From NCBI GenBank assembly GCA_964016885.1, contig OZ024750.1, positions 10,850,001 to 10,914,000 of the forward strand: a DNA stretch of 64,000 bases, written 5' to 3'. Shown in pieces: positions 851 to 11,624 of this stretch (the stretch's first letter is position 1; every line of letters starts with the position of its first letter). The notes beneath the pieces were generated by a model. That model searched no databases, had not been told where the DNA came from, and saw only the letters and a list, made by a program, of their open reading frames with translations. Position numbers and translations under genes: made by a program. Source of the DNA: Eledone cirrhosa. Its lineage: Eukaryota.

Positions 851-1020
851 TATACTGTATGTTTAATTAAAAACATTTTGAACACCATGCGCTATGAGTT
901 TTAAAGTAGTGACTATGTCACTTACTTATTCTCGGCAAAAATGCCGAGAATAAGTAAGTCACTACTTTAAAACTCATAGCGAATGGTCTTCAAAATGTTT
1001 TTAATTAAACATACAGTATA
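851..1020. repeat. Long inverted repeat (fold-back)
   Basis: tatactgtatgtttaattaaaaacattttgaa... / ...ttcaaaatgtttttaattaaacatacagtata; a relative lies at 13863-13972. Confidence 0.9.
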
Positions 1021-1077
1021 TTGCCAAATATACTATACATACATTCATATATATATATATATATACGATATATTAAC

Positions 1078-1408
1078 AAATGGAAACTATATTTATAAAA
1101 CCATATTTATTTCATTATACATATTTCAAGGACACCAAGTCAAATTATGGTGCGCTTTCATCAGATAAAATATAATAGAGATCAGTTTTATAAATAAATA
1201 TTGACATACCCTTAAAGAATGCGACCATTTCTGTTTTAAGCTCCCGGATAGTCAGAAATGGTCGCATTCTTTAAGGGTATGTCAATATTTATTTATAAAA
1301 GTGATCTAAATTATATTTTATCTGATGAAAGCGCACCATAATTTGACTTGGTGTCCTTGAAAAATGTATAATGAAATAAATATGGTTTTATAAATATAGT
1401 TTCCATTT
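1078..1408. repeat. Long inverted repeat, ~155-bp arms, hammerhead-bearing
   Basis: Near-perfect arms around a ~20-nt spacer at ~1235-1253. Confidence 0.95.
1114..1170 (-). ncRNA. Type I hammerhead-like motif (mirrored at 1316-1372, + strand)
   Basis: TTTTAT-CTGATGA-aagcgcacca[loop]tggtgtcctt-GAAATATGTATAAT; same flanks as 35121-35178. Confidence 0.6.
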
Positions 1409-1861
1409 AACAAATGTATCGTATTTTTACTCCAATAATTTGTTGAGTGCTTTATATCAGTTATAAAAATATTTTCTTGTTGTATCCCAACAATTTAAAT
1501 ATAACTTCTACATATATATATATATATATATATATATATATATATATATATATATATATATATATATATGTATAGTATTAATATATAAGAGAACAAAGAA
1601 TCAGAGTTGCATCATATACATATTTAATTACATATTACATATGTTTCACTGTCGATCAGCTCGAGGAACGATCTATTAATGATCGGAAGTATGTAGACTC
1701 GCCTCTATTGATACTCTGCTCTCCAAGAGCATCGAGTGCGCATTCGGCATACCGCCTTAACACCTATATATATATATATATATATATATATATAACAGTA
1801 GAACACTGGAGGGTTATATCCGTAGTGGTAGAGCACCCAGTCCGTGGGAGGAGTTTGGTAG

Positions 1862-2009
1862 AAGTAGTTCCACAACAGTTAGTTCACCATACTGAGAACA
1901 AATGTTTCACCTTATTCAGATCCTCAGCTCGATTTAGACCGTCCTGGGGGTTCGAATAAGGTGAAACATTTGTTCTCGGTATGGTGAACTAACTGTTGTG
2001 GAACTACTT
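1862..2009. repeat. Inverted repeat, ~55-bp arms
   Basis: aagtagttccacaacagttagttcaccata... and its reverse complement; lies between (TA)n and (CT)n. Confidence 0.9.
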
Positions 2010-2984
2010 TTCTCTCTCTCTCTCTCTCTCTCTCTCTCTCTCTCTCTCTCTCTCTCTCTCTCTCTCTCTCTCTCTCTCATATATATATAAATATATATAT
2101 ATATATATTACTCGTGTAGGACACCTCGGTTATTTTTCATTTTGTAAAAAAAACCTCACTTTCTAATATATATATGGTAATATTGGGGTCTTCCAATATA
2201 TATGCTGGTAAAGATGAGAGAAGCTCGATGCTATCCAGTTTCCTTAGTGCAGGAGTAATTCCAGAATCGCATATAGTTAGCCGATCTCTCGTATGCTTAT
2301 TAACCGTACTCCATATATTACATGTTCATATTTTCATCACTTTACAAATATCTTGACTCTCAGCTAGTTTCACCAATTTATTACCACTTCACTTAATTGA
2401 ATTTTATGGCGAAAAGAATATTTACATATCTTCGCATTTCAGTTTACTTATTTCCTTTTAATACAGTCTTAATACGTTAAGTAAATATAGAAACTATATC
2501 GTCGGTATAAATAAATAATAAATCATTTGATCATACTAATACATTAATGTTTTTTGTCCGGCCTACATCGCTGATTTAAAATCGTAGATGAAATATTTCT
2601 ATAGAGGAAAATTAAAGACGATTTAATGACTGATCTATATTTTAATATAGTTTCCTTCAACAAATTAAAGCTAACGATAGACTGTAAAGTATGTCTAGCT
2701 GACCGCTTGATATGATTAGATTAATATTATTGAGTTATTGCAGTTCTTCTTACAGTTTCTACATTGATATGTCTATATAACGTTTGAATGATTTATTCCA
2801 TATGCAACAGATGTCATACATATCATATATGAAATAAAATAACTGGTTCTTTTGAATGTGATGTTGGTTATATGTTTATGATTGTCTGTATAATACATAG
2901 ATACATGGAGTTCTAGATGGATTATATCTGACAAGACACAAGGCATGATGGTCATGACCAGAACGCCTTTTGATTATGTATCTA

Positions 2985-3450
2985 TTTAGAGCGGGTAAAA
3001 TTCCCGAGATCCATGGACGAGTTCTCTTCAGCGGTCTCTGCCTCTCATCGTCGCTGCCATGTTCTGCGTCTCCAAGAGACCAGTGTCTGTCCTTAGGACA
3101 TCAACGTGTGTCCACCTCGGTCTCCCTCTTCTAGTGTGTCCGTGCAGGGGCTCCTACGAGAGCACTGAGTGTAGTGTCAACTCTGGATGTCGGTGAGCAT
3201 GTCCAGCTAACCTCAGTCTCCTCTGTGCTACTCTCGAGCTGACTTTTCGGAGGCTCCCGTACAGCTCTGAGTTCTTCACCCTGTTAAAATATACACCAGT
3301 TATAATCATTGCTCATCCTCAGTGTATACTGATTAATGTTGAGAGCCATCCTCAGCATTCTCGTGTAGCACCCATCCACCATCTGAGTGAGTTTCTTGGT
3401 CAGTGTCCCGTACAGCAGCACAGATTTCACTGCAGCAACGAAGAGACGGA
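2985..3450 (-). mobile_element. RTE-like LINE 3' fragment (family A)
   Basis: Degenerate [36 protein letters not shown]. Confidence 0.85.
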
Positions 3451-8555: not shown

Positions 8556-8581
8556 AATCAAAACAACAAGAGGTAATTTCG

Positions 8582-8737
8582 GCAGATACAAGCCAGAAAC
8601 TCTGAAGAATTTATATATATATATATATATATATATATATATATATATATATATATTTATATATATATATATTTATATATATATATATATAAATATATAT
8701 ATATATAAATTCTTCAGAGTTTCTGGCTTGTATCTGC
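8582..8737. repeat. Inverted repeat around a (TA)n core
   Basis: gcagatacaagccagaaactctgaagaattt-(TA)n-aaattcttcagagtttctggcttgtatctgc. Confidence 0.9.
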
Positions 8738-9359
8738 TTGTATTTATATATATATATATATATATAAATATATATATATATAAATATATATATATAAATA
8801 TATATATATATATATATATATATATATATATATTTATATATATATATATATATATATATATATATTTATATATATATATTTATATATATATATTTATATA
8901 TATATATTTATATATATATATTTATATATATATATTTATATATATATATATTGTATATGTGTATTATATATATATGTATATTTTATATGTATATTATATA
9001 TATATATTATATATATATATTTATTATATATATATATATTATATATATATTATATATATATAAATATTATACATATATATTATATATATATTATATATAT
9101 ATATATATATGTATATATATATATATGTATATATATATATATATACATATGTGTGTGTGTGGGAGAGAGAGGGGGAGAAAGAGAAAGAGAAAGAGCAAAC
9201 AGCACTGTACCATGAATAAATATATTAGCTTAAAGTTTGCTATAGTTCTAAAAGTGTCTTTATATTTCGGACACTAGTCCTTTATCTGAATATAGAATGA
9301 GAAATAAAAGATGATAGGATACTAAGCAGCCGAATAAAAAATGTGGTTGAGAGGAAGAG

Positions 9360-9840
9360 CAAAGCCCGGGCGGCGTGCTACAGTTTGAGATTGGTGTGGA
9401 AGTCGGACCTTCGTTGCTGTTGTCGAGTCTGTGCTGCTGTACGGGTCTGAGACTTGGACACTGACCAAGACACTCACTCAGATGATGGATGGATGCTACA
9501 CGAGAATGTTGAGGATGGTTCTGAATATTAATCAGTATATACTGAGGATGAAGAACTCAGAGCTGTATGGGAGCTTCCGAAAAGTCAGCTCAAAAGTGAC
9601 ACAGAGGAGACTGAGGTTAGCTGGACATGCTCACCGACATCCAGAGTTGACATTGCACTCAGTGCTCCTGTGGGAGCCCCTGCATGGACACACTGGAAGA
9701 GAAAGACCGAGGTTGACATATGTTGATGCACCAAGGACAGACATTGGTCACTTGGAGACGTAGGACATGGAAGCGATGATGAGGGACAGAGACCGATGGA
9801 GAGAACTCGTCCATGGATCTCGGGAATTTGGCCCGCCCTA
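9360..9840 (+). mobile_element. RTE-like LINE 3' fragment (family A)
   Basis: [37 protein letters not shown].. Confidence 0.9.
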
Positions 9841-9909
9841 TATATATATATTATATATATCATATAAGAAACGGAGAAACAGTGGTGCGACGAATTAGAA
9901 TGTATTAGA

Positions 9910-10000
9910 CATATTACAATCGTTTCTCTGGCGACCAGCTCGAGGCACGATCGATGCGATGACCGAACCTGACTCTATGATCGCAAGATCTTCAGATACG
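9910..10000 (-). ncRNA. Type I hammerhead ribozyme with long stem II
   Basis: CGTAT-CTGAAGA-tcttgcgatca...tggtcgccaga-GAAAC gatt GTA-ATATG. The 3' half of a relative lies at ~1631-1675 (-). Confidence 0.75.
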
Positions 10001-11624
10001 GCTCAATCCCTCGAAGCAGAGTTTCCAAAATTTGCCAGAGAAACGATTTACCAAAGTTTAATAAATTCTAATCCGTCGCACCACTGCTTCTCGTTTTCTT
10101 TTGTGATATTATATTCTGCTCTGTAAGAGTATCGAGTGCTCAAACGGCCTACCGCATACGGGCGCTTTAAGCATTCCACACCAAATATACATACATATAT
10201 ATATATATATATATATATATATATATATATATATTCTATGTGCGTGTATATATATTTATGTATGTTCTTCTGGTTTTATAATTTCACAAAGTTTTACCAA
10301 TAGAGAGAGAGTCGGTTTCTAACATAGACACAAGACTCTCTCATTGGAATTAACATCAACTAGGTAAATATGTATGTATGCATGCATGTGTAGATATGGA
10401 TGTTATTGTATGTGTGGGTGTGTATGTTTTGAGTTGTATGTGTGCATGTGCATATGCTTTGTATCTGTATATGTGTATATGCAGTTATTAGATGCAAAAT
10501 ATTTGGAATGTTTTACATATTTTTACTGTTCCATTAATGGATTGTACTTGTAACTTCCTAACTAGTTGTGTTCTTTCTGTTCCTGTGAAACCTAGCTTCT
10601 CAAGATTTGTATTGAGGCATTTACTAACATATCCCAGTGCCCCAATAATCACAGGCATAAATCTGAAGGTGTAATCAGGGTGGAGTATCTACAGATTTCT
10701 CATCAGTTCTACATAAATGTATGTGTGTATGTATGTATGTATGTATGTGTGTGTGTGTATGTACAGGCACACACACAGACACACACAGACACACACACAC
10801 ACACACACACACACACACACACACAGAGAGTTTTAAATAAATGTACATACATATATAGAAGGGGTTTTCTAGACTGAAAGATATCCGTAAGTAAAGAGAA
10901 GAGTGCTGGGGTAGAGATAGCTTAAATCGTTCACCTGCCATGTAGACACCTTTGTTACTAAATATAAGTCAAACTGAATTAACAACCATCATCTTCATTA
11001 TTCTGATTAACCTAATAATACCGCCTACTCCAGCTTCTGAATTCTTAGCAAATCGCGCAATCTCTCTCTCTCTGTCTCTCAGACTCTATCCCTCTCTCTC
11101 TCACTCTATCTCCCCCCCTCTCTCTCTCTCTCTCACACACACATTCTCTATCTCCTTCCCTCCCTCTCTCTCTCTCTCTCTCTCTCTCTCTCACACTATC
11201 TCTCTCCCTCTCTCCATCCTTCAGCCTCTTTACACACACACGTGCGTGTGTGGTGTGTGTGTGCATAAAGGTACATATGTGAGTAAGTCTGTATCTACCC
11301 GTATCTACCTGTACATTAGTCTGTGTCTACCTGTATCTAAGTCTGTAACAGTATCGAAATTATATTGCGAGGAGCTGGTACTCAGACAAGACAGTCAGTG
11401 AAGCTACAGTTGATCCCTCGGCTTTTATCTCCCTAATATAGTGGGATTACCTCCACGTATTAACCTACTAACACCATTTTGATTATTTCTAATTAACCTA
11501 ATTTTCATTCTTACATTTTTTTTTATTATTATTTTATATTGAATTATATTTCTATTATGATTCTTAAGTTTTGGAGGCGTCTTAGGCCCCGTCATTTTTT
11601 TTTTGTCATTCTTAGCTCCCTGTT

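Follow-up and report, generated by a model that had tools for sequence, protein, structure and literature searches.

Lopsided palindromes beside microsatellites in Eledone cirrhosa: probable head-to-head ends of Penelope-like elements, some sharing a tail hairpin

The window analysed here is a 64,000-nt stretch of the Eledone cirrhosa genome (GCA_964016885.1, contig OZ024750.1, positions 10,850,001-10,914,000, forward strand), and all coordinates are window positions. The original prediction placed seven mostly unrelated inverted repeats in the first 10 kb. A self-blastn search of the window with microsatellites masked recovered all seven at about those places (P1-P7, within 851-10190; Table 1), with arm likeness of 82-100% in arm alignments. 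The P2 palindrome extended 11 nt further outward than first stated, crossing an 8-nt micro-inversion. None of the seven matched any other in blastn. Table 1 also lists further loci, labelled F1, Q5, H35 and Q9.

Table 1. Palindromes, related element ends, predicted hammerheads and tail hairpins in the window (arm alignments as matches/mismatches)
Feature	Position	Strand	Arm alignment	Description
P1	851..1046	.	75/2, one gap	arms 851-935 and 944-1020; right-hand tail 26 nt, then (TA)n; no ribozyme motif
P2	1067..1511	+	159/8	(TA)n, short arm 1067-1233, 19-nt loop, long arm 1253-1420, 91-nt tail, (TA)n
P3	1795..2009	-	61/5	(TA)n, 67-nt tail, long arm 1862-1927, short arm 1944-2009, (TC)n
P4	5809..6038	-	84/0, identical	(TA)n, 50-nt tail, arms 5859-5942 and 5955-6038, (TA)n
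P5	8122..8319	+	57/3	(TA)n, short arm 8122-8181, long arm 8183-8242, 77-nt tail, (TA)n
P6	8582..8737	.	30/0	30-nt arms 8582-8611 and 8708-8737 across 96-nt TA tract; geometry unlike other six
P7	9866..10184	+	55/12	(TA)n, short arm 9866-9932, 101-nt loop, long arm 10034-10100, 84-nt tail, (TA)n
F1	1588..1765	.		sense tail linked to an antisense copy that holds a 3' hammerhead half
PLE-type end	8368..8611	-		5'-truncated; canonical type-I hammerhead 8514-8558
Q5	30748..30945	+	identical	same layout; 62-nt arms, hammerhead cores outward from centre, 73-nt tail
H35	34971..35230	-		non-palindromic P2 relative; hammerhead 35123-35172
Q9	49754..49976	+		palindrome, 26-nt tail, N22 motif spacing of P4 with one core change
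P2 hammerhead, left arm	1108..1172	-		CUGAUGA, stem II 9/10 pairs, stem I 8 pairs, predicted cut after AUA
P2 mirror hammerhead, right arm	1314..1380	+		single change beside GAAA
P7 hammerhead	9910..10000	-		CUGAAGA, long stem II, cut triplet GUA; covers loop and left arm
Hairpin of P2	1429..1450	+		8 nt past short-arm end
Hairpin of P3	1833..1854			in 67-nt tail
Hairpin of P5	8248..8273			in 77-nt tail
Hairpin of P7	10113..10139			in 84-nt tail
Hairpin of F1	1713..1739			in sense tail
Hairpin of Q5	30879..30899			in 73-nt tail
Hairpin of H35	35035..35061

The common layout runs tract, short arm, junction, long arm, tail, tract, and six of the seven palindromes (not P6) carry an unpaired tail on one side only. 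In P2, P3, P5, P7 and Q5 the inverted copies are joined at their 5' ends, with ribozymes and tails reading outward. The original prediction did not remark on this lopsidedness; a one-sided tail with a fixed short-arm end is the Penelope-like element (PLE) layout described in PMC3846280 and PMC8557442. The predicted adjacency to (TA)n held for six palindromes, each with one outer end within 7 nt of a tract (at P3 this tract is (TC)n), against a background of 4.9% of non-repeat positions in 1-10200 lying within 5 nt of one (binomial p ~2e-5). The exception is P1, at 26 and 177 nt, its short arm being the end 177 nt from any tract. The only candidate target-site duplications were 2-4 nt TA matches, all inside microsatellites, and no empty site was seen. 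The first 16% of the window carries 7 of 14 non-SINE fold-backs; the dense cluster that had been claimed stands by length (p 0.003) but not once this part of the window is weighted by the (TA)n tracts it holds (18 of 44, p 0.33), and the clustering follows (TA)n density.

Hammerhead motifs were scored against 1000 mirrored shuffles per locus, and those of the original prediction proved present as described but unequal in strength. Full three-stem type-I hammerheads reading outward were found in both arms of P2 and in P7, with no shuffle reaching the score of either locus, although the lowest-energy RNA fold of the P7 hammerhead was a different structure; none reached the score of the Q5 cores either. 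P3 held a degenerate minimal core at 1927, the 3' half alone being at chance level (410/1000 shuffles). At 8133-8231, where only the 3' half of a ribozyme had been described as duplicated, P5 contains this half at 8200-8226, weakly (42/1000 shuffles); its 5' half was not recovered from reads (loose-end agreement 0.42-0.60). A motif search found no full hammerhead in the arms of P1, P4 and P6. Counting the one beside P6, full type-I motifs occur at three of the seven palindromes, partial ones in P3 and P5, and none in P1 and P4. Rfam gave nothing at gathering level on the window and did not match the P2 and P7 hammerheads. It gave a sub-threshold hammerhead (RF00163, 31.7 bits against a cut-off of 34, E 1.1e-4, minus strand) just outside P6, at 8514-8558; the CTGAAGA in the P6 arm is not part of this ribozyme. 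The best sub-threshold matches were otherwise microRNA families. Folding z-scores were weak, at -1.7 to +0.3 for ribozymes and -2.0 to +0.3 for tails.

The tails of P2, P3, P5, P7, Q5, F1 and H35 share a predicted, bulged and covarying RNA hairpin, ACTC..GAGTRC, which begins 5-12 nt beyond the short-arm end wherever both arms exist. The pattern, defined post hoc from these same sequences, has five full and two near-full matches in the 64 kb, all seven at these element ends, while the full form averaged 0.32 in 200 shuffles (maximum 3). In an alignment of seven rows, which represent about five lineages since P2/H35 and P7/F1 are kin, 47 of 49 cells are paired, against 14-50% in slid registers; all three inner pairs vary on both sides, and five G-U cells favour the strand of the ribozyme. 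Read-majority letters at 8263 and 8267 restore the missing pair and the TT bulge of the P5 hairpin. The parts of the PLE literature searched yielded no description of such a hairpin.

F1, absent from the original list, is a relative of P7 whose two copies do not overlap, hence the lack of a palindrome. P2 and H35 can be aligned over ribozyme and tail with a score of 134.5 (best of 300 shuffles, 105.5). P1 carries small local rearrangements, and its relative at 13849-14005 has a different centre. The P6 arm is the 5'-most 30 nt of the truncated end at 8368-8611, inversely duplicated over the TA tract, and the short arm ends upstream of the ribozyme; the likely origin of P6 is a local event, inverted duplication across this tract. 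Both P4 arms contain GAAAY-N22-CTGATGA, and the looser form GAAAY-N22-CYGAnGA is confined in the window to both arms of P4 and Q9, against an expectation of 0.17 for one spacing. The octopus elements Naiad_Obim and Naiad_Ovul prefer (TA)n, lack a canonical hammerhead (Craig 2021 supplement, PMC8557442) and carry, ~70 nt from the 3' end, GAAAY and CTGATGA in that order with a 22-nt spacing (PMC8557442). P4 and Q9 share this split-half-core spacing, the published one being counted by eye, and from these motifs are probably Naiad-type ends; comparison by eye and by short-motif search found no further likeness between P4 and the published octopus sequence. The identical arms of P4 look young against cephalopod Naiads, called long inactive in PMC8557442.

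The P5/P6 region was covered with reads from three RAD runs of three other samples (~12.5 million reads each), of which 21954, 22649 and 25402 were placed on 7880-8611. The P5 family proved very abundant, with depth highest in the tail: 12000-17000 over 8205-8304, ~7000 at 8180-8204 and zero on the flank at 7930-8129. Loose ends past 8242 read (AT)n in 211 contigs and in 1781, 1836 and 1786 reads of the three runs; another group, past 8227, has the same TTCC end followed by (TA)n (2195, 1762 and 1699 reads). Junctions to (TA)n recur at the short-arm end, and within the family the centres vary. The P5 and P6 families are truncated at the 5' side, toward which depth drops, with mixed loose ends at 8186-8192. 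Among the 15 joints listed (of 55), 13 connect the antisense arm, at 8173-8182, with a sense copy starting somewhere in 8222-8274, and in 6 of these 13 same-direction joints the sense copy starts beyond the proposed second start site (E, see below) and does not overlap its antisense partner; joint calling used 80% likeness and sides of 20-32 letters, and such calls are often false. Loss of the middle of a longer palindrome could also yield a non-overlapping pair. In the three runs no read or contig joined P5 to its own flank.

Endonuclease-bearing PLEs (Penelope/Poseidon, Neptune) are described in PMC3846280 and PMC8557442 as leaving a 5'-truncated copy with an adjacent inverted truncated copy, a tail at one end, a (TA)n bias and a type-I hammerhead near the 3' end, and the loci here resemble them in these respects, the hammerhead being full at three of the seven. 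Of the original interpretation, the several unrelated PLE-like families, the (TA)n preference and the hammerhead-bearing ends are supported. Unlike published PLEs, those described here lack the coding part and are known from non-coding remnants: the ORF list of the window held no RT or GIY-YIG gene (0 of 4 ORFs matched Pfam), the window showed only 150-450 nt ends and no autonomous RT and GIY-YIG element, and scans of sequence collections were empty. The PLE link therefore rests on anatomy. The tails also differ from PLEs as published, being 67-91 nt in five loci, about twice the 30-40 nt reported, and starting with the covarying bulged hairpin. Metazoan PLE minimal hammerheads are reported in PMC4209133 as paired on opposite strands, 100-700 bp apart. 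The predicted ribozymes here are likewise type I, with a short palindromic stem III and a long stem II, and paired on opposite strands, but differ in the GAAAU and AUA triplet of P2 and H35 and in a mismatched fourth stem II pair in P2, H35 and P7. According to PMC11167929, the Poseidon element of Anolis carolinensis cuts and extends both strands of AT-rich DNA in vitro, with two internal start sites bounding the tail and a dispensable hammerhead upstream. The lopsided layout matches these two start sites. The Poseidon start lies in an AC-rich stem-loop inside the ORF, whereas here a hairpin with a fixed ACTC/GAGT base and a 2-nt bulge is common to unrelated families.

We consider it probable (about 65%) that the palindromes are stump-sized PLE insertions, in which two truncated 3'-end copies lie head to head beside a microsatellite as a result of two-sided priming. 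The PLE protein would nick both strands of (TA)n DNA; one nick would prime reverse transcription starting at the distal tail end and the other at E, 67-91 nt upstream, positioned by the hairpin 5-12 nt downstream of E. Both copies would halt early and their ends would then be joined. A tail-primed copy running past E would give overlapping arms and a palindrome, and one stopping near E an inverted pair without a palindrome, as in F1. In this reading the hammerhead is probably just carried along with the element end that is copied. This two-start-site model fits P2, P3, P5, P7, Q5 and F1, and P1 in part only; P4 and Q9 were probably made likewise.

The original prediction had proposed self-priming by fold-back, or template switching, possibly nucleated at ribozyme hairpins. 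In a reading close to this and with the same PLE origin, one cDNA would fold back at a stem, often that of the ribozyme, and prime a second strand, which the endonuclease would cut at E, guided by the tail hairpin. The near-symmetric junctions with 1-nt loops in P5 and Q5 speak for this, as do the frequent P5-family read breaks at 8181-8192, in the would-be stem II, the attribution of the tail to endonuclease resolution in PMC8557442 and the tail requirement for endonuclease recognition cited in PMC11167929. Junctions in or beside the ribozyme motif in P3, P5, P7 and Q5 point the same way; short stumps would break there anyway because the motif lies only 20-50 nt from the short-arm end. Against it stand the 16-101 nt loops of P2, P3 and P7, the distance of the P2 junction from its ribozyme (~70-90 nt) and the two start sites on both strands of another PLE in vitro (PMC11167929). 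Self-priming is not favoured because F1 and 6 of the 13 listed joints pair non-overlapping copies, the antisense one holding sequence missing from the sense one. We regard this route as unlikely and favour two-sided priming from two start sites over a ribozyme-nucleated fold-back.

A post-insertion origin of the arms, in which repair or template switching took place at self-complementary (TA)n beside single PLE stumps, is very unlikely. P6 fits such an origin, with 30 nt duplicated over a TA tract and three contigs of its family continuing past 8610 into non-TA sequence, as do the rearrangements in P1; but the centres of P2, P3, P4, P5 and P7 are not microsatellites, and in the P5 family thousands of reads place the short-arm end at a recurrent site. 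An origin as fold-back MITEs, derived from DNA transposons and bounded by TA or 7-9 bp target duplications, with ribozyme letters occurring by chance, is highly improbable. P4 and P5 have TA-flanked ends, P2 shows an apparent 7-9 bp direct repeat, and a symmetric, tail-less TA-flanked element does exist at 25086-25172. However, the one-sided tails are homologous between loci, centres vary within families (P5-family joints; P1 against its relative), depth peaks in the tail, ribozymes were not matched by any of 1000 shuffles, and the 'target duplication' of P2 is the micro-inversion, within arms that continue to the tract. For P2, P5 and P7 the MITE reading is largely refuted. The palindromes themselves are real, and amplification or assembly fold-back artefacts have hardly any probability. 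The arms of P4 and Q5 are identical, no RAD read spanning any one palindrome locus with unique flank was seen, and the window has an N gap at 12678-12877; yet the two arms differ by 2-12 mismatches in five of the seven, the mirror image ends at a fixed point and leaves out tail and flank, and P5-family head-to-head joints are present in the runs of three other samples.

Head-to-head PLE debris beside microsatellites is of an already known kind, and the new detail is the shared tail hairpin. We tentatively suggest, with less than even confidence, that this hairpin is an undescribed cis-signal in at least five sequence-divergent PLE families, bound by the PLE protein and serving as a ruler that places the second priming site a few bases upstream of itself, so that PLE inverted repeats would come from two-sided priming at every insertion. 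If so, thousands of stumps in the genome record the insertion reaction and yield a minimal RNA signal for (TA)n-targeted insertion. PMC8557442 names the origin of PLE tandem and inverted structures an open question, and PMC11167929 leaves the steps after priming unvalidated. Because the insertion products here are tiny, abundant and read-mappable, with a conserved hairpin at a fixed place beside one end, two-sided priming can be tested against fold-back. Such palindromes can pass in annotation for MITEs or, as the Rfam matches illustrate, microRNA hairpins. They also resemble non-LTR retrozymes, described as short non-coding type-I hammerhead repeats tied to PLEs (Li 2026, 10.64898/2026.07.22.740005); these are head-to-tail tandems, whereas the seven palindromes are head-to-head, and retrozyme identity was rejected as 851-10190 contains no head-to-tail hammerhead tandem. 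Partial tandems occur in the window only at 36036-36746 and 39341-39945.

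All seven inverted repeats that the original prediction placed in the first 10 kb (P1-P7, in order) proved to be real, with arms 82-100% alike, and none of them matches another; as it had stated, most adjoin (TA)n tracts: one outer end lies at most 7 nt from a microsatellite in 6 of the 7, with a background of about 5%. The claimed dense cluster was present as a density, but the local density of palindromes follows that of (TA)n tracts (p 0.33) and the cluster itself therefore needs no special cause. The window is AT- and microsatellite-rich DNA of animal type (119 tandem-repeat rows), presumably from an octopus given the resemblance of its SINEs, and the list of inverted repeats from the repeat finder was dominated by TA tracts. 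No clear protein gene was detected among 56 ORFs of at least 120 aa in the window, and none of the four window ORFs searched against Pfam was matched.

Read outward from their centres, the inserts turn out to be asymmetric: in P2, P3, P4, P5 and P7 one arm adjoins a tract and the other runs into an unpaired tail, after which the next tract follows. The tail is part of the element, since P2, P7 and P1 each align with another locus: P2 with a non-palindromic relative (H35) over both ribozyme and tail (score 134.5, where none of 300 shuffles exceeded 105.5), P7 with a non-palindromic inverted pair (F1), and P1 with 13849-14005. An apparent target duplication at P2 was rejected, as it is really an 8-nt micro-inversion within arms that continue to the tract. 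The arm losses at 13849-14005 and at the palindrome Q9 look as if a template jump had occurred. P7 and Q5, the latter a palindrome beyond the first 10 kb, are located just past ends of a LINE-like family, so some of the target tracts may be LINE tails; several of the six 3' ends of this family terminate at TA or TAGA repeats. We take the family to be RTE-like; Pfam gave no match.

Positions and characteristics of the palindromes, their relatives and other repeats in the window
Feature	Position (strand)	Unpaired tail (nt)	Hairpin start past short-arm end (nt)	Remark
P1		26		short arm 177 nt away from a tract
P2		91	8	
P3		67	7	
P4	5859-6038	50		84-nt arms identical
P5		77	5	
P7		84	12	short-arm end may lie ~9 nt further out
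Q5	30748-30945		6	
Q9	49754-49976			one arm short by ~17-23 nt near outer end, between short near-direct repeats
Relative of P1	13849-14005			arm loss as in Q9
F1	1588-1765			
H35	34971-35230			
LINE-like 3' ends	9389-9840, 2975-3443 (-), 15308-15591, 30518-30715, 48617-48915, 50003-50328			
Hammerhead-bearing repeat, ~483 nt	36036-36746, 39341-39945			cores 36481 plus, 39488 minus
Minimal hammerhead	43652-43700 (+)			without stem III
Its decayed relative	9220-9307 (-)			76% alike
Fragment between TA tracts	6140-6270 (+)			3' hammerhead half, damaged 5' box, AATAAA downstream
Loose tail-like motif (53434-53452)	53434-53560 (-)			possible 3' hammerhead half ~60 nt upstream, TA tract further up; strict hairpin descriptor not satisfied
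SINE-like inverted pairs	13350-13840, 33570-34249, 17784-19439			
N gap	12678-12877			200 bases

The tails of P2, P3, P5, P7 and Q5 contain a predicted hairpin that opens with A(C/T)TC and closes with G(A/G)GTRC; between these lie a stem of 3 bp, its loop and, on the 3' side, a bulge of 2 nt. The hairpin also occurs in F1 and H35. The full descriptor had 5 matches in 64 kb, with 2 more having two of the three inner pairs and no others; shuffles gave a mean of 0.32 full matches, a comparison that overstates the case because the outer stem was the criterion for choosing the seven rows, and four of these form two related pairs. Within these rows 47 of 49 cells are paired and every inner pair varies on both sides. 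The reads provided an independent check for P5. In its window copy one of the pairs is broken and the bulge reads TA; in the read majority the pair is restored and the bulge is TT. Five G-U cells point to folding of the predicted hairpin on the strand of the ribozyme. A loose ACTC..GAGTRC pattern was abandoned, since 9 of its 16 matches lay elsewhere, with no clear ribozyme upstream; six of the matches elsewhere had at most one inner pair in the strict scan and were dropped. A tRNA-like reading of the P3 tail (plus strand) was likewise discarded, and ARAGORN reported 0 genes in the window. No description of the tail hairpin or of the long tails was found in one supplement or in the literature, searched by topic and not by motif sequence, with Repbase, Dfam and older papers (Arkhipova 2006) out of reach.

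Of the hammerhead-bearing ends originally predicted, those of P2 and P7 stood. Here, and in Q5 (30748-30872), the three-stem type-I descriptor scored higher than in all 1000 mirrored shuffles of each, and all three predicted ribozymes point away from the centre. The full motif was absent from the arms of the other 9 of the 12 palindromes tested with this descriptor. The 3' halves in P5 and P3 are weak or at chance level (equalled by 42 and 410 of 1000 shuffles, respectively) and therefore count through their context alone. Descriptors for permuted hammerheads (type II or III) found none in P4, P6 or Q9, the sole type II match being in P3. Rfam gave no match at gathering level in the window; among the matches listed (150 of 162) there was one hammerhead, directly outside P6. 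Rfam scans of P2 and P7 detected no hammerhead. Lowest-energy folds match the ribozyme stems in P2, H35, the P6 neighbour and 36481 and disagree with them in P7, P3, Q5 and 43662, and single-sequence folding of tails and ribozymes gave no significance. The ~483-nt hammerhead repeat, which is PLE- or retrozyme-like (PLE, Penelope-like element), is partly tandem at the first of its two loci; at the second it occurs as a permuted head-to-head pair whose junction carries a 22-nt duplication.

Read evidence over 7880-8611 came from three RAD runs and a set of contigs, all under the same species label, and covers only P5 and part of P6; runs X1-X17, with less than a tenth of the words, were excluded. 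The P5 family is very abundant, with a depth (which is not copy number) of 12000-17000 over the tail and outer arm. At 8242, the short-arm end, approximately 1800 reads per run depart from the reference into (AT)n, and another 1700-2200 reads, which form a variant group, share this end and then enter (TA)n. Since thousands of reads switch there, the short-arm end is a property of the family. Among the joints listed (15 of 55), each unreliable singly given short sides and a low likeness threshold, 13 join the antisense arm to sense starts spread over 8222-8274 (6 beyond 8242), so that centres vary in the family; the remaining 2 switch strand elsewhere. The reads diverge upstream of 8186-8192 (agreement 0.42-0.60), where the 5' half of the P5 ribozyme is unreadable, and none covers the flank 7930-8129; they thus do not confirm the P5 locus itself. 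Three contigs carry the P6 element beyond 8610 into non-TA sequence. P6 therefore differs from the other palindromes: it is a truncated copy of which 30 nt are duplicated in inverse orientation on the far side of the tract. Exact-pattern scans for the P5 family detected 0 loci in metagenome contigs and 0 in viral contigs, and an autonomous partner was thus not reached.

We explain the main group as truncated PLE 3' ends joined head to head, and set the probability of a PLE origin at 0.85-0.9. PMC8557442 and PMC3846280 describe PLE insertions as a truncated copy with an adjacent inverted copy, a one-sided tail of 30-40 bp and a (TA)n bias, and PMC4209133 already records paired minimal hammerheads on opposite strands. 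PMC11167929 reports that a PLE protein, once purified, cuts AT-rich DNA on both strands and extends each of them; synthesis begins at two sites within the RNA, which delimit the tail, and the hammerhead is not needed. The polarity of the palindromes agrees with this two-start-site reaction. A bottom-strand nick would prime from the tail end and give the long arm, and a top-strand nick would prime from a second start site at the short-arm end and give the inverted short arm. The self-priming fold-back of one strand that was originally proposed is disfavoured by pairs that do not overlap (F1 and the six joints beyond 8242), though deletion from longer palindromes could imitate such pairs. Two-sided priming is thus preferred, and we regard this route overall as reasonably probable. 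The palindromes work like a PLE insertion unit and are probably examples of it; the key mark of membership would be the RT-endonuclease gene. An interpretation as MITEs, whose target duplications would be 9 bp long or TA, failed the MITE tests and was dropped after the palindrome, ribozyme and read analyses, and none of P1-P7 qualified as a retrozyme by the membership test.

In P4 and Q9, and at no other site in the window, GAAAY stands exactly 22 nt upstream of a CUGAnGA-type box, and the same spacing, counted by eye, occurs in two published octopus Naiad ends. The identical arms of P4 would point to recent activity; cephalopod Naiads are described in PMC8557442 as long inactive. Short motifs of P1, P2, P4, P5 and P7 had no match in the text of the Craig 2021 supplement, where line breaks can mask matches.

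Fold-backs also arise from an abundant SINE-like repeat that occurs as inverted pairs; this second source has no relation to the ribozyme group. At 25086-25172 a symmetric, TA-flanked inverted repeat without a tail contrasts with the tailed palindromes and is presumably a true MITE of Tc1/mariner type. More fold-backs beside TA tracts, with neither ribozyme nor tail hairpin, were observed at 56973-57421 (arms of 180 nt, 97% alike) and at 51506-51795, a 132-nt tandem of a short palindrome related to 31908-31968.
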